A DNA stretch of 64,000 bases. It comes from Acidimicrobiaceae bacterium (GTDB lineage Bacteria > Actinomycetota > Acidimicrobiia > Acidimicrobiales > Aldehydirespiratoraceae). Of this stretch, positions 3,239 through 51,640 are shown piece after piece. The notes beneath the pieces were generated by a model. That model had not been told where the DNA came from. It made no database searches and was given only the letters and a program-made list of their open reading frames with translations. Position numbers and translations under genes: made by a program. How positions within the stretch are numbered: the stretch's first letter is position 1; every line of letters begins with the position of its first letter. The stretch is from assembly GCA_028819005.1 (NCBI GenBank), contig JAPPMP010000033.1, forward strand, positions 14,273 through 78,272, read 5' to 3'.

Positions 3239-4282
3239 TCACGTACTCTCAGCGCCGGTTTGGTTGCCGCGGCGGGCGCGCATGCGCTCCTTCATGCGGG
3301 CGTGGGCTTCAGGGGTGCCGTCATGGAAGGTTCCGAAGAGCTTGTCGATCGGCACCGGGCGGTTGCCGTAGTTGCATTCGAAATAACGGTGGTGGAGATG
3401 GTGGTAGTAGTCGGCGCCGGGAGCGGTCCGGCCCTGGCGTCGGCCGATCTCGAACTGATCGAAACCGGAGTGAGAGACGGCCGGTGACAGGCCGTTGAAC
3501 AACCCGCTGAGGATCACGATGAACGGGTGTGCTGGCACGACCCACCAGAGTAGAAAAACGCTGAAATAGATGACATGCTCGAGCGGGTGCATGGAGGTGC
3601 CGCTCCACGGCCCGGTGTTCACGTTGCGGTGATGCAGATAGTGGGCGTGGTCGTAGAACCAGCGCACGTGCAGCAGTCGATGGTTGAGATAGAAGTGGAT
3701 GACCGACCACAGGAACACGCCGACGGTGAGCGCCCCCAGGTACAGCCACGCCGAGTCCCAGCCTGTGGAAGCAACCCAGTCATTGGCGTATGCCCACAGG
3801 GTGAGTGATTCGTACACGGTCCAGATCCCGCAGCCGCTGACGAGGCTCCAGAACATGTTGTCCCGCGTCTGGTTGGTCCACAGGAACGACTTGTTGGTGG
3901 TGCTGAGCCAGCGCTGGTTGTACTTGTAGCGCTGCTGTTGGGCTTGGCGGCTGTACAGGAAAAGGTGGAGTGATCCCGCGACCAGACTCAACAGCACGAC
4001 ATTGCGCAAGTATATCTCTAGCATCCACGCCGGATGGAGGTCCGCCATGCGGTCCATCGACGGGGTGAGATAGTTCCAGGTCAGAGCCGCCAGTGCCACC
4101 CAGAAGATCCCGTAGGGCAGCATCACCGGTGTGAGCAGGTAGCGCAGCGTCGCCAGCGGACGCGGCGGCCAGTCAAGGATCGGCGACACCGTTATCGGCA
4201 CCGCCGGTTCGTAGCCCTTGGACTCGGGGCCCCGTCCCGTGTTGAGCGGTGCCGTGCTGTTCGTCGGGGACGTGTCTGCCAT
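3239..4282 (-). CDS. sterol desaturase / fatty-acid hydroxylase family membrane protein
   Basis: His boxes HFYLNHRLLH, HYLHHRN and HHLHH. Start is ATG at 4282, preceded by GAAGGAGG. The longer 587-aa ORF extension overlaps the next gene. Confidence 0.8.
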   Translation of the reverse strand: MADTSPTNSTAPLNTGRGPESKGYEPAVPITVSPILDWPPRPLATLRYLLTPVMLPYGIFWVALAALTWNYLTPSMDRMADLHPAWMLEIYLRNVVLLSLVAGSLHLFLYSRQAQQQRYKYNQRWLSTTNKSFLWTNQTRDNMFWSLVSGCGIWTVYESLTLWAYANDWVASTGWDSAWLYLGALTVGVFLWSVIHFYLNHRLLHVRWFYDHAHYLHHRNVNTGPWSGTSMHPLEHVIYFSVFLLWWVVPAHPFIVILSGLFNGLSPAVSHSGFDQFEIGRRQGRTAPGADYYHHLHHRYFECNYGNRPVPIDKLFGTFHDGTPEAHARMKERMRARRGNQTGAEST

Positions 4283-4380: not shown

Positions 4381-6189
4381 TCAGCGGACGGCGTGAGCGG
4401 GTGCCGGCGCGATGGTGAACTCCATCACGTCGTCGTCGACCGGCTGGCGGCCGATGAACTTCCGGTCCCTCAGATAGTTCTGGGTGTTGAGCCAGGGCTC
4501 GCGGTCGCCCTGGCGAGGCAGCAGATGCATGGCCCGCTTGATGTAGCCCGCTGGGAAGTCGTCGATGAAGGGCCGCGGCGCCATGTCGTGGTCGGTCGGA
4601 CGCAGACGCGGCGTGCACTGGGTCGTCCCCGTTTCGCGCATGTGGTTCAGCAGGCGACAGACGTAGCCGGCGTTCAGGTCCACCCGCAGGGTCCAGGACG
4701 AGTTGATGTATCCGAAGGTCGTCACGAGATTGGGCACATCGGAGAAGGCCATGCCCTTGTAGGTCCAGGTCTCGCCCAGATTGACGGGTTGGCCGTCGAC
4801 TTCGAGCTCGACCTGCCCCAGCGCCACGAGCTGCAGGCCCGTGGCGGTGACGATGATGTCGGCTTCGAGTTCCGTGCCCGATTCGAGCAGGATGCCTTTC
4901 TCGGTGAACGTGTCGATCGTGTCGGTAACCACCGAAGCCGACCCGTTGCTGATGGATTCGTAGAGGTCGCCGTCGGGGATCAGGCATAGTCGCTGGTCCC
5001 AAGGGTTGTATTGGGGCGTGAAGTGGGTGTCGACGTCGTAGTCGGGTCCGAGAGCTTCGCGGGCGGCCTCAAGGAGCCGTTCTTTGAGACGCTCTGGTTT
5101 GGTGCGCGACATCCGGTAGATGAGGTGTATGCGGACGATGTTCTTCCAGCGGGTCAGCCAGTAGGCGAGCCGTTCGGGCAGCACTCGCTTGAGCCTCTGG
5201 TTGAACGGATCGACGGCGGGCGCGGGCGCCATGTAGGTGGGCGATCGCTGCAGCATGGTGATGTGCGCGGTCTTGGCGGCCATCGCCGGCACGAGGGTTA
5301 CCGCGGTGGCGCCAGAGCCGATAACGACCACACGCTTGTCCTTGTAGTCAAGGTCTTCGGGCCAGGCCTGCGGGTGGACGATCTGGCCACCGAAGCGCTC
5401 AACCCCCCGGAATTCGGGAGTGAACCCCTCCCGGTAGGAGTAGTAGCCCGAGCACATGTTCAAGAAGCCGGCCTTCATTGTGCTGTGCTCGCCGGTGTCG
5501 GTGTGTTCCACCGCGACCGTCCAGCGCTGCTCGGCGCTCGACCACGAGGCCCGCTGCACGCGCCGGTTGAAGTGAATGCGGCGAGCGAGGTCGTTCTCTT
5601 CGATGGTCTCTTTGAGATAGTCGAGGATTGCGGGTCCGTCGGCGATGGACTTGTCAGCGGTCCAGGGTTTGAAGCTGTAGCCGAGGGTGTGCATGTCGCT
5701 GTCGGAACGCACCCCGGGATACCGGAAGAGGTCCCAGGTACCGCCGACGTCGGGCCGTCCTTCGAGGATCGCGAACGTGCGGTCCGGGCACTGGTTCTGC
5801 AGGTAGTACCCCATCCCGATCCCCGAGATCCCCGCCCCGACCACAAGCACGTCTGTGTTGTTGCCGGGCGCGTTGCTTTCGCCGGGCGTAGCCGGAGCCC
5901 CGGAGGCGTTGTTGTTGCCTGGCGCGTTGTTGTTGCCGGGCGTAGCCGGAGCCCCGGAGGCGTTGCTTTCGCCGGGCGTAGCCGAAACTCCGGAGGCCGC
6001 GGGAGCCGCTGGGTCTTCATCCCGTCGGTGACCGCCCCGACCGGTCTGAGCCCCGGCGGCCGCGGGAGCCGCGGGATCCGTACTGTTGGCGGCGGTGGCG
6101 CTGGGAGAGCGGTCGTTCACGGGGTAAGTATGGCGGGTTGCGCGGGCTAGTCCTCGAAGAGGTGGTACATGGCAGCGGTCGCGCTGCAC
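4381..6189 (-). CDS. Baeyer-Villiger-type flavin monooxygenase with repeat-rich N-terminal extension
   Basis: DVLVVGAGISGIG, GGTWDLFRYPGVRSDSD and VVVIGSGATAVTL. The start is uncertain (6189 or GTG 6120). Confidence 0.85.
   Translation of the reverse strand: MQRDRCHVPPLRGLARATRHTYPVNDRSPSATAANSTDPAAPAAAGAQTGRGGHRRDEDPAAPAASGVSATPGESNASGAPATPGNNNAPGNNNASGAPATPGESNAPGNNTDVLVVGAGISGIGMGYYLQNQCPDRTFAILEGRPDVGGTWDLFRYPGVRSDSDMHTLGYSFKPWTADKSIADGPAILDYLKETIEENDLARRIHFNRRVQRASWSSAEQRWTVAVEHTDTGEHSTMKAGFLNMCSGYYSYREGFTPEFRGVERFGGQIVHPQAWPEDLDYKDKRVVVIGSGATAVTLVPAMAAKTAHITMLQRSPTYMAPAPAVDPFNQRLKRVLPERLAYWLTRWKNIVRIHLIYRMSRTKPERLKERLLEAAREALGPDYDVDTHFTPQYNPWDQRLCLIPDGDLYESISNGSASVVTDTIDTFTEKGILLESGTELEADIIVTATGLQLVALGQVELEVDGQPVNLGETWTYKGMAFSDVPNLVTTFGYINSSWTLRVDLNAGYVCRLLNHMRETGTTQCTPRLRPTDHDMAPRPFIDDFPAGYIKRAMHLLPRQGDREPWLNTQNYLRDRKFIGRQPVDDDVMEFTIAPAPAHAVR
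5863..5997. repeat. imperfect tandem repeat (about 45-54-bp units) encoding ASGAPATPG(E/N)(S/N)NAPGNN
   Basis: Units read at 5863-5907, 5908-5958 and 5959-5997. The region lies inside the 5' part of the monooxygenase ORF. Confidence 0.8.
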
Positions 6190-6923
6190 ATCATGTCGAC
6201 CCGGTCCGAGCGCTCGACGGTGGCGGCGAACTTCAACCCGTCGTCGCCGAGCCAGCGGCCGCCCTCGCCGAGTGCATCGAGCGCAGGAGCAACGACCGTA
6301 CGCGGGTCGACAGGCGGACCTCCCATGCGTTCATGGTCGGGATTGCTGGAACGGAGGGCTGGGGTGTCCATGCTCGGAGCGACGATGGCCAACGTGTCGA
6401 CGCCGGAGTCTTTCAGTTCCCAGCCGATCGCCTCGATCAGGTTGATGGAGAACGCCTTGGTCGCGCTGTAGAGGCCCACACAGGCGGTGCCTGCCAGCGC
6501 GGAGCCCGAACTGGTGACAACGAAACCGCCGCGACCGCGCTCGGCCATGGCCGGCAGCGCCCACGAAGCCAGATCGACAGTTGCCCTGCAGTTGACGTCG
6601 AGGGTCTTGCGACGCATCTCCGCGTCCATGTCGAGAAACGGGCGAACATACGAGACGCCCGCGTTCGCCACCGCGATTCCGATCTCAAGCCCAGCGGTCT
6701 GCTCGGTGAGCACGTCGATCCATCCGGGGTCGCTCACATCGGTGATGACCGTGCGGGTCCTCCCGCCGAGTCCGGCGGCGGTCTCTACGACTCCCGGCGA
6801 GATGTCGACCATCACGACCCCGACTCCCCGGGATATCAGTTCCTCGGTGTACGCCAGTCCCACGCCGGCGCCCGCCCCTGTCACCACACCCCACGGACCG
6901 TATTTCTCAGCAAAGCCTGTCAT
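6147..6923 (-). CDS. SDR-family short-chain dehydrogenase/reductase
   Basis: The N-terminal GVVTGAGAGVG motif, the downstream YSATK motif and a length of 258 aa fit this family. Confidence 0.85.
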   Translation of the reverse strand: MTGFAEKYGPWGVVTGAGAGVGLAYTEELISRGVGVVMVDISPGVVETAAGLGGRTRTVITDVSDPGWIDVLTEQTAGLEIGIAVANAGVSYVRPFLDMDAEMRRKTLDVNCRATVDLASWALPAMAERGRGGFVVTSSGSALAGTACVGLYSATKAFSINLIEAIGWELKDSGVDTLAIVAPSMDTPALRSSNPDHERMGGPPVDPRTVVAPALDALGEGGRWLGDDGLKFAATVERSDRVDMMCSATAAMYHLFED

Positions 6924-9372: not shown

Positions 9373-9451
9373 GGGCCGAAGCGTACACCGCAGCGGCGGC
9401 GACCGCGATGTCGGCGAACGGTCAGAGACAACAACGCAACAAACAAAGAAC

Positions 9452-9745
9452 GCGCGCAAATTGGCGGGCCTTCGAGTTGCAGCCCGTTGTTCCCCGCTCC
9501 TGGTTCGCTGCGCTGCGTTTCCCGCTCTTGTTCGCTGCGCTCACCGGGCCGTTCGGTCCGCGGGCGGGCTCGGTCTGGCAAGGCCCGGCTCGTCACGGCC
9601 GCGGGCGGGCCCATCCTCTCCATCGAAGTCGTCAACGGGCTCAGCCCGGCTCGTCACGCCCGCGGGCGGGCCGCTCGGGCCACGGCCCGCAAATCAAGCT
9701 GCTCGCACTCGGAAGTCCTCTGCCAATTCGCGGGGCCTCTAGGAT
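9452..9745. mobile_element. MITE-like intergenic element, copy 1 (about 290 bp) with terminal inverted repeats
   Basis: The 5' end GCGCAAATTGGCGGGCCTTCGAGTTGC matches the reverse complement of the 3' end (GCGAATTGGCAGAGGACTTCCGAGTGC). A second copy lies at 44074-44280. Confidence 0.6.
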
Positions 9746-13974: not shown

Positions 13975-15705
13975 TCAGGCCGATTCATCCAGTGGCGGCA
14001 GTCTGGGTCCGCCGATCCGCAGATCACCACGACGCCGGGTGATCCCGTTGTCGTCGAGACAGGACAGCAGCGGAATGGCGTACTTGCGGCTCGTTCCCCA
14101 CTCGTCACGGACCTCGGCCACCGTGACCCCGTCGGGTTGACGGCTCAAAAGAGCGGCCACGACTCCAGCCGCAGCCGCGACCGCGCTCTTGGCGAAATAA
14201 ACCCCGTGGGCTTCGATCACGTCACCCCTGCGAACCAGCTCACGAAGTTCAGCCCGGTCGACGCCGGTGGGATCGGGAGGGGCGAACGGCGAGGCCTCCA
14301 GAGCATCCACGAAGGGATGCCCGGTCAATGTGTCGACCGCGTCGACAGCCCTCGCGTGGCCGTGGTCCACGGTCACGCCGACAAGGGTGTCCAACAACGC
14401 TCGTCCGAAGTCGTCGAGGGTTGCAATGTCTAGTCCTAGCGGCCCCGCTGCGGAGACGGCCTCGCCGAGCTCGACCCGACGGGCCTCCAACACCGCAGGG
14501 TCCACCGCCCAGTTCCCCACATCGGGTTCACGCCGCTCACCGGTCAGTCGCAGCAGATGGTCGACGTCCACTCGACCTCGTTCGGCGATCACCCGGTCCA
14601 AGCTCCGATCAGGCCGGGCTTTGGCAGCGGCGACTATCGGGTCGACGTCCAGGATCTCCCCTCCCCCGAGCGTCTCCCCCCGGCCCGATTCGCGAAGGAT
14701 GAACCGGTCCCCGGGCAACAGAGGCAGCCCCACCGGCAGATGCAGGCGAACCGCGCCCTCTGTGCCGGGCTGAATCTCCGAAGGGCCGAGCACACGGAGC
14801 CTGACCGGGAACTCCCCGGAGCCCAGATAGGCCATGTGAGCACCCCGTCGGGTGACCGGATGGTCAACGGCGTCAAGGACCTTCAACTGGCCGTCGATGC
14901 GCCGGGTGACATGCCACTGGTCGGCCCCTACGAGCACATCGCCGCGGGTCAGCTCGTCATGGCTGACCCCGGACAGGTTCAGTGCAACCCGGTTCCCCGG
15001 TCCCACCTTCGATCGTTCGGCATACAAGCTCTGCAGCGCCCGGACCCGTACAGCCCGCCGGTTGGGCAGAGCAGCCAATTCATCGCCTACCCGCACCCGG
15101 CCGCCGGTGAGGGTCCCCGTGACCACGGTCCCCGATCCCTTTGCGGCGAACACCCGGTCGATCCAGAGCCGCGGCCGCTTGTGGTCGACCGCTGTCGGTG
15201 TGCTCTCCAGCAACTCGTCGAGTGCTTGCTGGATGTCCTCGACGCCGGACCCGTCCAGAGCGTCCACGTCGACAATCGCCGCACCTTCCAGAAAGGTGCC
15301 CTCCGCGCGTTCCTCCACGTCGAGGCGCGCCAGTTCTCGCAAGTCCTCATCGGCCAAGGAGGCTTTCGTGAGCGCCAGCAGCCCGTGTTTGATCCCCAGC
15401 AGATCCAGGATCTGCAGATGTTCCTCGGACTGGGGCTTCCAACCCTCGGTGGCCGCCACCACGAAAACGCAGGCGTCTACGCTGCCAACCCCGGCCAGCA
15501 TGTTCTTGAGGAAGCGGACATGGCCGGGCACGTCGATGAACGCCACGCCTCTGCCGGAGGGGAGTTGCGTTGAAGCGAAGCCCAAGTCGATGGTGAGTCC
15601 GCGTGCCTTCTCCTCAGACAGCCGATCCGGGTCGGTGCCGGTCAGCGCCTTGACCAGGGTCGACTTGCCGTGGTCCACATGCCCGGCCGTAGCCACCACA
15701 TGCAT
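13975..15705 (-). CDS. selB: selenocysteine-specific translation elongation factor
   Basis: GTPase motifs AGHVDHGKS and DVPGH, followed by EF-Tu-like domains and winged-helix C-terminal domains. It lies immediately downstream of selA. Confidence 0.9.
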   Translation of the reverse strand: MHVVATAGHVDHGKSTLVKALTGTDPDRLSEEKARGLTIDLGFASTQLPSGRGVAFIDVPGHVRFLKNMLAGVGSVDACVFVVAATEGWKPQSEEHLQILDLLGIKHGLLALTKASLADEDLRELARLDVEERAEGTFLEGAAIVDVDALDGSGVEDIQQALDELLESTPTAVDHKRPRLWIDRVFAAKGSGTVVTGTLTGGRVRVGDELAALPNRRAVRVRALQSLYAERSKVGPGNRVALNLSGVSHDELTRGDVLVGADQWHVTRRIDGQLKVLDAVDHPVTRRGAHMAYLGSGEFPVRLRVLGPSEIQPGTEGAVRLHLPVGLPLLPGDRFILRESGRGETLGGGEILDVDPIVAAAKARPDRSLDRVIAERGRVDVDHLLRLTGERREPDVGNWAVDPAVLEARRVELGEAVSAAGPLGLDIATLDDFGRALLDTLVGVTVDHGHARAVDAVDTLTGHPFVDALEASPFAPPDPTGVDRAELRELVRRGDVIEAHGVYFAKSAVAAAAGVVAALLSRQPDGVTVAEVRDEWGTSRKYAIPLLSCLDDNGITRRRGDLRIGGPRLPPLDESA

Positions 15706-15740
15706 CGGTCAACACCCCCCGACGTGTGGCGAGCGGATCA

Positions 15741-17009
15741 TCAGTCAGAGCCGGGGGTCAAAGCAGCGGCAATCTCGGAGTCGTCGTCCGGGTGAACGGT
15801 GCGGAGATCGATGACGGTGCGCCCGTCGACGACCCGGGCAATTATCGGGCGCCGGTGGTTGCGCAGACGGTTGCGCTGGTCGCCTTCGACCGCCACGCCC
15901 GCAGACGGGATCTCCACTCCCGGCAAGGTCCCGCCACCTGGCGTGGAAGCGACGTCCACAACGACCCCGACGCCGATTTCCTGGGCTCGGGAGCGCAGCT
16001 CATCTTGGGACAGAGACGCCATTCGCCAAAACGGGATGGCGTCGCCGTCGCGATTCAGGTAGGCCAAAGCGGTGGCCTGCAAAGCCCCGAGGACCAGGGA
16101 GCCGGGTCTGAGGGCACGGGCCAGCGGATGGGCCGCGCACGCTGCCACCAGATCAGCGCGGCCCGCGATGATGCCCGCTTGTGGACCACCGAAGAGCTTG
16201 TCGCCGGAGAACGTGACCAGATCGGCGCCCGCCTCAAGCGTCTGACGAGCGGCTGGTTCGTTGTCCAGCCACCCGGGGGGTCCACCGGGCAGCCAGGAGC
16301 AACGGCTGTCGGCGAGTCCCGAACCGATGTCGGAGACCAGCGGGCGGCTGAGCGTGGCGAGCTCGGCGGTCCGGGGGGCTTCGGTGAAGCCGACGATCTT
16401 GTAGTTCGACTGGTGTACCTGCAGCACCACAGCGGCGGCATCGCCGTGCTGCTCGACCGCTCGTTTGAAATCGGCCAGCCTCGTGCGATTGGTGGTCCCG
16501 ACCTCGATGAGTCGTGCCCCCGAACGTTCCATCACGTCGGGAACCCGAAAACCCCCGCCGATCTCCACCAACTCGCCGCGGGAGACCACTACTCCTGAGC
16601 CCTCGGCGAGACTCGCCAACACGAGCAGCACCGCTGCCGCGCAATTGTTCACCACAATCGCAGCTTCAGCCCCGCAGACCTGGGCGATCAGCGCCGGAGC
16701 GGCGTCCATGCGCGAGCCGCGTTCTCCAGTCGTCAGATCGAACTCGAGATTCGAGTACTGCTCGGCTTGGTCCCAGCTGATCGGGGCACGACCGAGGTTG
16801 GTGTGCAGCAGCGTGCCGGTGCCGTTGATGACCGGGCGCAGCAGGCGGCGCCTGGCCGCGTCGTCGGCGATCTGACGTGCGCTTTCGGGGGCTCCGGCGT
16901 TGATCGCGGTGCGGGCCGCCTCCACGAGCATCGGGTGAGGAAGGCCGGTGTCGTGCAACGACCGGGCCAGCCGGTCGACCGACGGAGGGCGCGAAGTCTG
17001 TTCAGTCAC
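15741..17009 (-). CDS. selA: L-seryl-tRNA(Sec) selenium transferase
   Basis: The PLP-lysine motif FSGDKLFGGPQAGII, the N-terminal VDRLARS motif and a length of 422 aa fit SelA. Confidence 0.9.
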   Translation of the reverse strand: MTEQTSRPPSVDRLARSLHDTGLPHPMLVEAARTAINAGAPESARQIADDAARRRLLRPVINGTGTLLHTNLGRAPISWDQAEQYSNLEFDLTTGERGSRMDAAPALIAQVCGAEAAIVVNNCAAAVLLVLASLAEGSGVVVSRGELVEIGGGFRVPDVMERSGARLIEVGTTNRTRLADFKRAVEQHGDAAAVVLQVHQSNYKIVGFTEAPRTAELATLSRPLVSDIGSGLADSRCSWLPGGPPGWLDNEPAARQTLEAGADLVTFSGDKLFGGPQAGIIAGRADLVAACAAHPLARALRPGSLVLGALQATALAYLNRDGDAIPFWRMASLSQDELRSRAQEIGVGVVVDVASTPGGGTLPGVEIPSAGVAVEGDQRNRLRNHRRPIIARVVDGRTVIDLRTVHPDDDSEIAAALTPGSD

Positions 17010-43061: not shown

Positions 43062-43994
43062 GTGGCGAAGGAGCGTGTCGAGAGGGACGAAGAGGATCTG
43101 GTCCGGCTGTATCTCACGGACATAGGCCAGTACCCGCTCTTGACCAAGGAGGGCGAAGTTCGCCTGGCTCAAGAGATTGAGGCTGGGATCGAAGCGCGTC
43201 GCGAACTGGCCGAGTCCAGGCCTTCTCCCGCGCGCCGCCGTGAGCTTCGTCGACTCTCCCGCAAGGGTGAGGCTGCGACCCGCACCTTCGTCCAGTCGAA
43301 CCTGCGACTCGTTGTCTCTATCGCCAAGAAGTACCAGGCCTCCGGTTTGCCGCTGCTCGACCTGATCCAAGAGGGCAATCTCGGTTTGATGCACGCCGTC
43401 GAGAAGTTCGATTGGCGCAAGGGGTTCAAGTTCTCGACGTACGCCACTTGGTGGATCCGCCAGGCGATCACCCGCGGAATCGCCAACACCGGGCGCACGA
43501 TCCGCCTGCCGGTGCATGCCGGCGACACTCTGGCGCGCCTGCAGAAGGCCCGAACCCGCTTGGAGCTCAAGTACGGTCGACCCGCCACGCTAAGCGAACT
43601 GGCCGCCGAAGTTGAGATGCCTGAGGACAAGGTGACCGAGGCGTTGCGGTTCGCGGCCGAGCCGTTGTCGCTTTCTGAGCCGTTGCGAGAGGACGGGGAT
43701 GCTGAACTCGGCGACGTCGTGGAGGATCGCGGCGCTGACTCTCCGTTCGAGGTGGCGGCCACGGCTCTGTTGCCCGAGGAGATCTCTCGGCTGCTGTCTC
43801 CGCTCGACGAGCGTGAGCGTGAGATTCTCAAGCTTCGGTTCGGCCTCGACCGGGGTGAGCCTCGGACTCTTGAAGAAGTGGGGGAGCATTTCAACCTCAC
43901 CCGTGAACGCATCCGTCAGATCGAGGCCCGAGCGATGTCGAAGCTGCGCCACCCATCATCGGACACCGGCGCCCGCGACCTCCTCAGCATCTAG
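43062..43994 (+). CDS. sigma-70 family RNA polymerase sigma factor (group 1/2-like)
   Basis: Region 2 LIQEGNLGLMHAVEKFDWRKGFKFSTYATWWIRQAI and region 4 TLEEVGEHFNLTRERIRQIE. Confidence 0.9.
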   Translation: MAKERVERDEEDLVRLYLTDIGQYPLLTKEGEVRLAQEIEAGIEARRELAESRPSPARRRELRRLSRKGEAATRTFVQSNLRLVVSIAKKYQASGLPLLDLIQEGNLGLMHAVEKFDWRKGFKFSTYATWWIRQAITRGIANTGRTIRLPVHAGDTLARLQKARTRLELKYGRPATLSELAAEVEMPEDKVTEALRFAAEPLSLSEPLREDGDAELGDVVEDRGADSPFEVAATALLPEEISRLLSPLDEREREILKLRFGLDRGEPRTLEEVGEHFNLTRERIRQIEARAMSKLRHPSSDTGARDLLSI

Positions 43995-44073
43995 CTTGCA
44001 CATCCCGCTTGCAGGGGACGCAAGTCGCTCAGGCTAGATCCTGAGGAGGTCATGTGATTGCGAGTCATTCAGA

Positions 44074-44280
44074 GCGCGCAAATAGGCAGGCCTTCGAGTT
44101 GCAGTCGGTTGTTCCCCGCTCTTGGTTCGCTGCGCTGCATTTCCCGCTCTTGGTTCGCTGCGCTCACCGGCCCGCTCGGGCCGCGGGCGGGCCGCCGGCC
44201 ACGGCCCCGCAAATCAAACCGTTCGCACTCGAAACCGTTCGCACTCGAAAGTCATCTGCCTGTTTGCGTGGCCTCTCAGG
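44074..44280. mobile_element. MITE-like intergenic element, copy 2 (about 200 bp)
   Basis: It aligns with 9452-9745 at both ends. Terminal inverted repeats are CGCAAATAGGCAG..TTCGAGT and ACTCGAAA..CTGCCTGTTTGCG. An internal 16-bp unit is duplicated at 44219-44250. Confidence 0.6.
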
Positions 44281-44764
44281 TGGATGCCTTGTTGGACACA
44301 TGCAGTGTCAGTCCGCTCACCAGCAGGGTCCCGATGAACAGGCCTTGAGTCATTAAATGGTTCCTCTCGCCCAACAGGATCGCACCGGCTGACAGAAGTG
44401 CAAAGAACAGCACGCTGAGAGCGATGCAAGCGTGGCCGACTTCGTAGCGATGCGGTTTGCGGGTGACGAAAGCAATGAGCGACAGCAGGAACAGCAGGCC
44501 CAGCACCACCTCGATGATGCCGACGCCAGCGGCTAGAGGCGCTGCCAGCGACGTGTCCAACCCCAGTTTGGGCAGCATGTTTTGTTCGAGTCCCATTTTG
44601 AAGTTCACGCCGTAGAACTCTGCGCCGTTGAAAAACTTGTCGAAGCCGTTCAACAGCCAGAACAAGAACCAGTACAGGCTCAGCACCGCTCCGATACCGA
44701 CCTTCTCATTGATGCGAACAAGCATTCCCGCAATTCCGGGCGCGCCCGCAGTTCGATCATTCAT
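44276..44764 (-). CDS. DoxX-like membrane protein
   Basis: It has four hydrophobic segments and AAGGAGA lies upstream of ATG 44764. The family call is tentative. Confidence 0.55.
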   Translation of the reverse strand: MNDRTAGAPGIAGMLVRINEKVGIGAVLSLYWFLFWLLNGFDKFFNGAEFYGVNFKMGLEQNMLPKLGLDTSLAAPLAAGVGIIEVVLGLLFLLSLIAFVTRKPHRYEVGHACIALSVLFFALLSAGAILLGERNHLMTQGLFIGTLLVSGLTLHVSNKAST

Positions 44765-46288: not shown

Positions 46289-46421
46289 GGGATCTTACCC
46301 ATGTCGCGATTTCAGCCCCATGGCCTGAAGACGGTTGGGGATTGTTGGGGCAGCGCAGAGGTTCGGGGGCACGCACTGGCGGCTTCGACGCCCGGCGCCT
46401 GCCGACGTGCTCTGCGGCGGG

Positions 46422-46632
46422 CTAGGCGTGGACAGTGAAGGCTTGGCGGCGGTTTCGGCCGAACCGGTAGATGAAATAGTCCTGATCAAATGAGATCGCC
46501 TCGTGAACGCCGAGGCGCCGCATGATCGACCAGTTTGTGCGATCGACGATTGAGAACTCCTAGTCGGTGAACGCGTCGTGAATCTGCGAGGCGATCTCAA
46601 GGTCAGCGATCGTGGCGACTTCCACGCGGGCC
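46422..46632 (-). pseudogene. duplicated 3' half of vapC (47341..47757) with an internal stop
   Basis: About 210 nt align to 47341-47551 with scattered mismatches. The codon corresponding to Q in TDQEF is TAG here, and there is no 5' half. Confidence 0.7.
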
Positions 46633-46643
46633 CGCTGATAAGG

Positions 46644-47278: not shown

Positions 47279-47340
47279 GTGCCTAATTATACACATAGAT
47301 CAGACTGTCACGACTCCGACTTTCGTCAAAGAGCTTGAGG

Positions 47341-47757
47341 CTAGGTGTGGACAGTGAAGGCTTGGCGACGGTTGCGACCGAACCGGTAGATGAAATAGTC
47401 CTGATCAAACGAGATCGCCTCGTGAACGCCAAGGCGCTGCATAATCGACCAGCTTGCGCGATCGACGATTGAGAACTCCTGGTCGGTGAACGCGTCGTGG
47501 ATCTGCGCGGCGATCTCAAGGTCGGCGATCGTGGCGACTTCCACGCGTGCCCCACCGGAGCGGACTGTTGCGATGAGTGTTTCGGCTGTATCGAAACCGA
47601 GCCGATTAGCCGCCAGGAACCAGGTCTCGACGAGCACATGATCGCTGGTCACCAGGTCTCCGGAGAACTCGCTGAGGCGTTCGACGGCTCGGTCGTGATG
47701 AATATCGCCGAGGTCCGCGGCTGCGTACCAAGCCGACGTGTCGACGAAGACGCTCAC
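47341..47757 (-). CDS. vapC: PIN-domain toxin
   Basis: FVDTSAWYAAAD, SDHVLVET and FSIVDRAS. It overlaps its antitoxin gene by 4 nt. Confidence 0.85.
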   Translation of the reverse strand: MSVFVDTSAWYAAADLGDIHHDRAVERLSEFSGDLVTSDHVLVETWFLAANRLGFDTAETLIATVRSGGARVEVATIADLEIAAQIHDAFTDQEFSIVDRASWSIMQRLGVHEAISFDQDYFIYRFGRNRRQAFTVHT

Positions 47758-48105: not shown

Positions 48106-48201
48106 TGGCGGAGGTGGACGGGAATCGAACCCGCCGGACAGGGATCACCCATCCCACCCGCTTTGAAGGCGGGGGAGCCCACCAGGCGCTCGGACACCTC
48201 C
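48106..48201 (-). tRNA. selC: tRNA-Sec (anticodon UCA)
   Basis: 96 nt. Anticodon loop CTTCAAA, long variable arm (GGGAT/ATCCC), 6-position D-stem with a short loop, 8-position acceptor plus 5-bp T-stem, discriminator G and an encoded CCA. Confidence 0.8.
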
Positions 48202-50825: not shown

Positions 50826-51640
50826 GCGCCTTGTTCGTCCTCGGTTGCTGCGCGCTCAGCGCGGTGTGGCTGCGTCCCTGGCGCACCCGGCCCCGACCTC
50901 TGGTGGAACCCCTGCCCACAGCGCACCGAGATGCGCTGCGGTCGACAGGCCGCTCAGCCCGTCGGCCGAGGAGCCGGTCAGCCGGTCGGTCAGAGGGCCG
51001 CTCAACGGGTCGGGCAACTGGCCGGTCAGCCGGTCGGCCGGGCTCGACTCGACGCCGAGCGCTATTGGTCGGAGTGATCCTCGGGGTGGTAATGGTCGGG
51101 TTGTCGCAGCCGGTGCTGGTCATCCCGCTGCTCTTGGTATACGCGGTCGTGGTGAGACGCCGTCGGCGAGCCGCAACCGACGACCACGCCGACGTGGTCA
51201 GGGCCCTGCCCGAGGTCGTGGACTTGGTGTTGGTGGGTGTGGGCGCCGGCCTGACGCCGAGAGAAACGCTGCACCGTTGCCAATCATGGTTGCCCGATCC
51301 CTTTGCGGAAGCCGTGGCCGGAGCACTGTCGAGGGCCGCGTCCGGGGCGACCTTCGCCGACGCGCTGGACAGAGGCATGACGCCGCTGGGAGACCGAGTG
51401 CGCCCACTGGTGGCAGCGCTCAATGCCGGCGAGCGCGATCACGCAATGCTGGCCCCCAGCCTGCTGCGGGTCAGCGACGAGGCTCGTCGCCAACGGCGGG
51501 TCGCCGCACAGGAGCGAGCGCGGCGTGTACCGGTCGCGATGCTCGGACCACTGCTTTTGTGCGTGCTCCCGTCGTTCGCACTGCTGACCTTGGCCCCGTT
51601 GATACTCGGCTCTCTCAGCGACCTGGGAGTGGTCGTCTAG
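50822..51640 (+). CDS. tadC: TadC-like type II secretion system F-domain protein
   Basis: LPEVVDLVLVGVGAGLTP and C-terminal transmembrane segments. GTG 50822 overlaps the tadB stop. An alternative start at TTG 51065 would give 191 aa and exclude the repeat region. Confidence 0.7.
   Translation: MSALFVLGCCALSAVWLRPWRTRPRPLVEPLPTAHRDALRSTGRSARRPRSRSAGRSEGRSTGRATGRSAGRPGSTRRRALLVGVILGVVMVGLSQPVLVIPLLLVYAVVVRRRRRAATDDHADVVRALPEVVDLVLVGVGAGLTPRETLHRCQSWLPDPFAEAVAGALSRAASGATFADALDRGMTPLGDRVRPLVAALNAGERDHAMLAPSLLRVSDEARRQRRVAAQERARRVPVAMLGPLLLCVLPSFALLTLAPLILGSLSDLGVVV
50948..51043. repeat. two tandem 48-nt units (GRSARRPRSRSAGRSE / GRSTGRATGRSAGRPG)
   Basis: Units at 50948-50995 and 50996-51043, sharing GCCGGTCAGCCGGTCGG. 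Confidence 0.75.

Follow-up and report, generated by a model that had tools for sequence, protein, structure and literature searches.

A non-coding MITE family of Acidimicrobiia and the insertion of one copy at the stop codon of a membrane-protein gene

The repeat that separates a sigma-factor gene from a convergent membrane-protein gene in the window (the whole 64-kb stretch of DNA analysed here) is a real non-coding mobile element (MITE), inserted exactly at the stop codon of the membrane-protein gene. It very probably represents a prokaryotic MITE, that is a non-autonomous DNA transposon family of the Acidimicrobiia for which no host function is indicated. The original prediction had described a MITE-like element in two copies, and this description is borne out by its small size and non-coding nature, its terminal inverted repeats, a 3-nt target duplication, at least 32 copies in a related chromosome and an empty site.

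Results

Structure of the element

Alignment of 28 copies of the family sets the ends of the complete element, here called copy 2, at positions 44072 and 44275 on the plus strand, giving a length of 204 nt with GAG...CTC termini, in keeping with the shorter variant of about 200 bp that had been predicted; an element does lie at the limits first proposed for it, 44074 to 44280, although these did not give its exact ends. Direct reading of the sequence shows a TCA triplet on the left (44069 to 44071, plus strand) and the same triplet on the right (44276 to 44278, plus strand), and this right-hand triplet, read on the minus strand, is the TGA that terminates the membrane-protein gene. The GGCCTCT(C)AGG tail reported to be shared by both copies is present, but it had not been recognised as a composite of the terminus (GGCCTC, the last six bases of the element), the target triplet and a neighbouring G.

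The left terminal inverted repeat arm, GAGCGCGCAAATAGGCAGGCCTTCGAGT, occupies 44072 to 44099 and the right arm, ACTCGAAAGTCATCTGCCTGTTTGCGTGGCCTC, 44243 to 44275, both on the plus strand and both identified by pattern match and by their pairing in folds; the right arm is the best conserved module of the family. The repeats originally read from the sequence, CGCAAATAGGCAGGCCTTCGAGT (44076-44099) and ACTCGAAAGTCATCTGCCTGTTTGCG (44243-44268), are present and paired in the fold. Internally, TRF detects 2.2 copies of a 28-nt tandem unit (CCCGCTCTTGGTTCGCTGCGCT..., 44115 to 44177, plus strand), which occurs about once in the 144-nt form of the family, while the family member at locus L066 carries 6.9 copies of a 27-nt unit together with 4 copies of a 20-nt GC-rich unit. 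A GC-rich 11-nt unit follows in 2.1 copies (44177 to 44199, plus strand) and marks an allele-variable region, in which strains L002 and L004 have indels and the scaffolds of L002 and L003 have gaps. The tandem duplication of CCGTTCGCACTCGAAA described at 44219-44234 and 44235-44250 is exact and 16 nt long (44219 to 44250, plus strand); it is peculiar to copy 2, the sequence being single in the family consensus.

The neighbouring sigma-factor protein is encoded in four near-identical assemblies (ENA ROBB21-1_SAMN13943215_scaffold_286, a scaffold of 137.7 kb in which the window lies, and three others including GCA_028824095.1), and copy 2 is kept at the identical site in these four strains, the differences being indels (of 20 nt and 2 nt) in the internal GC-rich part only. 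The site is stably occupied. None of the four assemblies has a gene called in the spacer that holds the element, and its concatenated six-frame translation, compared with proteins, gave no match among the matches listed (8000 candidates), a weak negative; together with the 20-nt and 2-nt allele indels these results agree with the earlier view that the three open reading frames at 44054-44356 are artefacts. In the L002 and L003 assemblies runs of N fall within the element (equivalent to 44150-44260), and in L002 the flank is duplicated past the gap. Short-read assembly evidently breaks here because of the internal repeats of the element.

Filled and empty sites

The gene to the left of the element (43062 to 43994, plus strand) encodes a sigma-70 family factor with Pfam Sigma70 r1_2, r2, r3 and r4, and the gene to the right (44276 to 44764, minus strand) a conserved membrane protein with no Pfam family; both lie outside the element, and the stop codon of the second is the duplicated target. 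Two short metagenome contigs, L110 and L111 (from JGI and ENA), carry the same convergent membrane-sigma pair with a spacer of 104 nt and no element. Their membrane protein is the closest relative of that in the window (91% identity), and its gene ends ...KAST-TGA like the window's. When the element and one TCA are removed, the alignment of the window with L110 is colinear across the stop codon and on into the spacer, and in this empty site the TCA triplet is present once, as the stop codon. Comparison of the filled and empty sites gives the picture expected when an insertion duplicates a stop codon and the protein stays the same.

Between the stop codon of the sigma-factor gene and the element (43996-44050) there are two small hairpins, TCCC-GCTTGCAG-GGGA and CTCAGG-CTAGAT-CCTGAG, and the element-free relative has a comparable hairpin, CTAAGCCTGGATCCAGGCTTAG. 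The structures native to the 3' ends may be these small hairpins and not the MITE.

A second copy in the window

The other copy in the window (copy 1, 9448 to 9739, plus strand) is a long variant of 292 nt with extra GC-rich internal units. The existence of this second copy, also part of the original prediction, is confirmed by blastn, which aligns it to copy 2 with an E value of 8e-37 (139 nt at 88% in the left part, plus 77 nt at 80%) and, over the 64 kb of the window with its 62.7% G+C, finds nothing above noise beyond the two copies; weak spurious matches elsewhere in the window come from the GC-rich simple-repeat centre of the element. The degenerate dual-arm pattern ACTCGRAN{3,6}CYGCCNRTTYGCGNGS matches exactly four arms in the window and none in 100 shuffles. 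The blastn E value and the comparison with shuffles establish that the repeat is real and not a product of chance in GC-rich DNA. Copy 1 lies between divergent gene starts, is flanked by AAA and TAG without a matching duplication, and has GAA as its first three bases; given these flanks and this start it looks older than copy 2.

About 82 kb of the window's genome hold two complete copies and one decayed copy. The latter, approximately 3.5 kb upstream of the window start (L112 5327-5429), is an old 5'-truncated copy that corresponds to positions 45-144 of the consensus; present in three strains, it separates two genes of the same strand.

The family in a related chromosome

Scanning 185,579 species genomes with the dual-arm pattern returned 97 stretches. 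About 70 of them are scattered single matches in unrelated phyla, which is of the order expected by chance for the information content of the pattern, while 24 stretches (27 matches) belong to one record, OZ220692.1, the 3.55-Mb chromosome of an Acidimicrobiales MAG. In 24 blocks of 8 kb (192 kb) from this chromosome, BLAST with the window copies identified 26 complete and six 5'-truncated copies, dispersed from 0.32 to 3.37 Mb. Since the pattern matches only three of the eight copies other than those for which the blocks were chosen, we estimate that this suggests a total of roughly 30-70 copies in the chromosome. The blocks show no synteny with the window, the only link being a sigma paralogue at 41% identity.

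When the copies are aligned with their flanks, most of them end in GAG...CTC, conservation that extends beyond the limits originally given. The main form of the family is 144 nt (consensus GAGCGCGCGCAAATAGGCAAGCCCTCGAGTTGCAGCCCGTTGTTTCCCGCTCTTGGTTCGCTTCGCTCACCGGGCCGCTCGGGCCACGGCCCCGCAAATCAAGCCGTTCGCACTCGGAAATCCTCTGCCTATTTGCGGGGCCTC), and ten copies of this form have a mean pairwise identity of 94.7%, with certain pairs identical, so that amplification looks recent. The terminal inverted repeats of the consensus are about 30 nt long (left GAGCGCGCGCAAATAGGCA..CTCGAGT, right ACTCGGA..TGCCTATTTGCGGGGCCTC; ends of the GAGSSCSCGCAAATAGGCA type) and are conserved in 28 copies. Family lengths range from 137 to 367 nt, the copies of 190-367 nt having the same end modules with more internal units. 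Tandem arrays of the internal 27/28-nt and GC-rich units have expanded and contracted, giving rise to these 137-367 nt forms and to the 204-nt and 292-nt variants of the window; with their shared end modules and differing internal units, the 'short' and 'long' variants are alleles of a single modular element that differ in length.

Some copies in OZ220692.1 are arranged or composed differently. A chimeric variant found twice (L060, ~1430-1541; L063, ~1775-1885) combines the usual right arm with a different left module, GAGGCCGAGCGGACAG.TCACAGATTCTCATG.CCAAGAAGACTCAGA.AGCGAGGCCG; this could be a sister element or part of the parent, and is a hint that related elements exist or have recombined with one another. 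At L108 two copies (3532-3670 and 6482-6620) lie ~2.95 kb apart with identical flanks, which is better explained by a segmental duplication including the element than by two insertions. At L096 (1154-4166) three copies fall within 3 kb, the first inverted with respect to the other two, and bracket short ORFs; this may be a nest or a composite arrangement.

The duplicated target and stop codons

The triplets that flank the family are mostly TAA on both sides. Of 27 independent copies, 11 have identical triplets at left and right, where permutation of the right flanks would predict 5.4 (p=0.001). Three of the identical pairs are not TAA (TCA/TCA at L099 and at copy 2 of the window, TTT/TTT at L107), where 0.56 would be expected (p=0.011). 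Among the little-diverged 144-nt copies the flanking repeats are perfect in all but one, and mismatched pairs, mostly one base apart, occur in more diverged copies. About half of the copies, including copy 1 of the window, are without a matching triplet; as such copies are the more diverged ones, decay is the likely reason. A G usually follows the right triplet, which defines a target of about TNA-G. The symmetry of the ends (GAG/GAG) and the flanks at L066 (TAA|G versus TAA|A) favour a duplication of 3 nt rather than of the 4-nt TNAG, as judged from these sequences.

Many of the copies in OZ220692.1 abut stop codons of long ORFs. At L027, for example, a full-length DAHP synthase gene has the right triplet as its TGA, and the stop codon of the opposite gene, VWA/CoxE, is composed of two bases of the triplet and the first G of the element. 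The strong tendency toward stop codons, with the TNA duplication or the first G recreating a stop, and the expandable internal arrays could be taken to mean that the element has been co-opted in sponge symbionts as a gene-end module (an insulator, RNA-processing site or protein-binding array), or that it is moved by a transposase with a novel manner of targeting stop-codon context. We regard this as unlikely.

Genomic context and folding

Quite unlikely is the proposal that the repeat is a cis-acting RNA or DNA element of the host (a terminator, mRNA-stabilising hairpin or sigma-regulon leader), selected for its hairpin and spread by duplication. The copies at stop codons would suit such an element, as would the position of both window copies beside sigma-related genes, copy 2 adjoining the sigma factor and copy 1 a STAS anti-sigma antagonist. 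Across the family, however, the neighbours in OZ220692.1 are unrelated housekeeping genes and others (NAD kinase, RecN, DAHP synthase, phosphoglucomutase, a TetR regulator, a protease, acyl-CoA dehydrogenase), and the orientations of the flanking genes as obtained with a crude ORF caller (6 convergent, 12 tandem, 4 divergent) equal the random expectation; in view of this the sigma-gene adjacency of both window copies is most likely a coincidence. The triplet duplications and the empty site also speak against spread by duplication, as they indicate insertion.

The arms pair into a long stem in the folds of both window copies, yet the folding energies lie inside the range of dinucleotide shuffles. 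Copy 2 has a z score of -1.9 and copy 1 one of +0.6, and the consensus scores about -1.0 whether folded as RNA or DNA. Rfam covariance models find only two tRNAs and a tRNA-Sec in the window and no family in the element, and neither copy contains a T-run terminator-like or promoter-like site. Among the 26 to 28 copies scored, changes in the arms are mostly one-sided, several of them break pairs (A·C in six copies) and there is no covariation; a single double change keeps its pair, in copy 1 of the window. With one-sided changes predominating, it is apparently the sequence of the arms that has been conserved, as would suit a protein binding site, and not an RNA helix. The suggestion that the hairpin of copy 2 might serve as a bidirectional terminator between the convergent genes finds no support, there being no T-run past the hairpin and no more than ordinary folding energy, while copy 1 sits between divergent starts and the orientations in the family are random. 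Terminator and structured-RNA readings were rejected on the Rfam result, the T-run and promoter search, the folding z scores and the arm changes.

A REP or REPIN-type repeat, moved by a RAYT (IS200/IS605-like Y1) transposase acting on single-strand hairpins, would likewise be intergenic, GC-rich, palindrome-containing and mosaic in the manner of BIMEs. REP and REPIN elements make no target duplication, however, whereas in the family described here terminal inverted repeats of 28-33 nt, with GAG/CTC at their ends, are flanked by a duplicated 3-nt target. A GTAG-type 5' motif is absent, the units of at least 144 nt with distinct left and right subterminal modules are unlike a REP doublet, and neither a RAYT gene nor a RAYT-type Pfam family is listed among the genes of the examined loci, all of which makes this origin very unlikely. 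Chance or low-complexity GC-rich similarity without any repeat family, which the original prediction had itself named as the competing case, could appeal to the GC-rich simple-repeat centre and its weak spurious matches but is refuted by the E value of 8e-37 between the copies, the four pattern matches against 0 in 100 shuffles and 32 more copies in OZ220692.1 with conserved, AT-containing arms, and retains next to no probability.

Nothing in the sequence data indicates a host function for the element, and any effect on termination or mRNA stability would be incidental.

The host and its genome

The window belongs to an uncultured host within the Acidimicrobiia, with its closest named relatives in Candidatus Poriferisodalis. 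Homologues of the membrane protein carry the source names Acidimicrobiaceae bacterium or Candidatus Poriferisodalis sp., and the Candidatus Poriferisodalis and ROBB21 assemblies are presumably from marine sponges. A WhiB gene lies near the sigma/membrane locus of the window.

Several other features of this genome came to light. In strain SAMN13943214, ~2-6 kb upstream of the window start (L113 3989-7724), genes for DarT, a DarG-like ADP-ribosylglycohydrolase and a UvrD-type helicase lie between PNPOx and hydantoinase genes; neither the window's strain (L112) nor L114 has them, and the insert looks like a strain-variable DarTG-type defence island. Within the window, a 214-nt direct repeat (46420-46633 and 47339-47552, 93% identical) in a cluster of PIN-domain toxin-antitoxin genes looks like duplicated TA modules, and short tandem arrays occur at 1561-1626 (17-nt unit), 5856-5999 (54-nt unit) and 50939-51034 (24-nt unit). 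A tRNA-Sec gene (48110-48201, minus strand) is accompanied in the window by selA and selB genes at about 13975-16931, so that the organism appears to use selenocysteine.

Distribution

In about 120 kb from relatives with membrane-protein identities of 72-80% (L006-L012), at loci that are not syntenic, there are no copies. A strict pattern of 23 bases from the left arm, too specific to the window's lineage, had 0 matches in genome contigs and in JGI metagenome contigs, a strict right-arm pattern had 0 matches in JGI metagenomes, and a plasmid search with the family consensus returned no match. The absence of copies from these relatives and, with the strict patterns, from the JGI metagenomes indicates that the family is narrow, and its history is known from two lineages only. 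The literature search listed no paper that joins MITEs with sponge Acidimicrobiia, and a 2024 review of prokaryotic MITEs has no mention of the group. The family appears to be undescribed, yet it is a textbook MITE in kind, hosted by sponge-associated Acidimicrobiia.

Discussion

The arrangement described above can be accommodated by a mechanism in which the ~30-nt terminal inverted repeats (consensus GAGCGCGCGCAAATAGGCA... / ...TGCCTATTTGCGGGGCCTC) would be recognised by a DDE-type transposase whose gene lies elsewhere in the genome. The enzyme would cut out or copy the element and place it in a T-N-A triplet, most often TAA and frequently with a G after it, and the triplet would be duplicated in the process. 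At copy 2 the target was the TGA stop of the membrane gene; the duplication preserved the stop, and the protein remained the same. We infer that the transposase acts in trans and, by analogy, that it is IS5-family-like (IS1031-like), on the grounds that the 3-nt duplication and GAG ends are as in the IS1031 group. No autonomous or transposase-bearing element with matching ends was found through arm matches or long-range inverted repeats in ~400 kb of related sequence, which took in the 192 kb of OZ220692.1 and the ~82 kb of the window's genome.

Our understanding of MITEs as such is unchanged by this family. Its practical importance lies in annotation, as it accounts for spurious ORFs, scaffold gaps and contig breaks in sponge Acidimicrobiia MAGs, and in strain tracking in sponge microbiomes, for which it offers presence/absence and length-variable markers. 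It also points to a DNA transposon recently active in a symbiont lineage, and the stop-preserving duplication illustrates a way in which a TNA-targeting element may spread in a GC-rich, gene-dense genome without gene damage.

Among insertion sequences, the IS1031 group of the IS5 family, together with ISLxx6/IS1237-like actinobacterial elements, is the putative source of the transposase. GAG ends are attributed to the IS1031 group (ISfinder family table), and most copies of the family described here have them. The flanks of the present family favour 3 nt, a 4-nt duplication like that of the IS5 group proper being less likely. In the eukaryotic relatives PIF/Harbinger, with their Tourist MITEs, it is TAA/TTA that is duplicated. 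For the IS1031 group, an insertion site of three nucleotides is given in the literature (PMC2516522).

Like the prokaryotic MITEs reviewed previously (Correia, RUP, ERIC, Nezha, Chunjie, QMITEs; PMC10969869, PMC3184786), the family consists of small non-coding elements with terminal inverted repeats, a short target duplication and tens of mostly intergenic copies, and it resembles them further in its size variants, 5'-truncated copies, presence or absence among relatives and long-hairpin fold. It differs from the known examples in matching neither Rfam nor plasmids and in its host, the sponge-associated Acidimicrobiia. The duplication made by Correia, RUP and ERIC is TA, in contrast to the 3-nt TNA of the present family, and Chunjie duplicates 9 nt; Chunjie had been considered as a TWA-duplicating relative and was dropped in view of the 9-bp repeats given in the literature. 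From intrinsic terminators and SPRITE-like elements the family is set apart by having no terminator motif and no bias toward convergent gene ends across its members.

In architecture the element is also comparable to the BOX elements of Streptococcus pneumoniae, which range from 67 to 637 nt (PMC3184786), as both have conserved left and right end modules around a variable number of internal units, here within 137-367 nt. In sequence, host and internal units the two are unrelated, and unlike BOX the present family possesses clear terminal inverted repeats and a target duplication, which make it a classic MITE.
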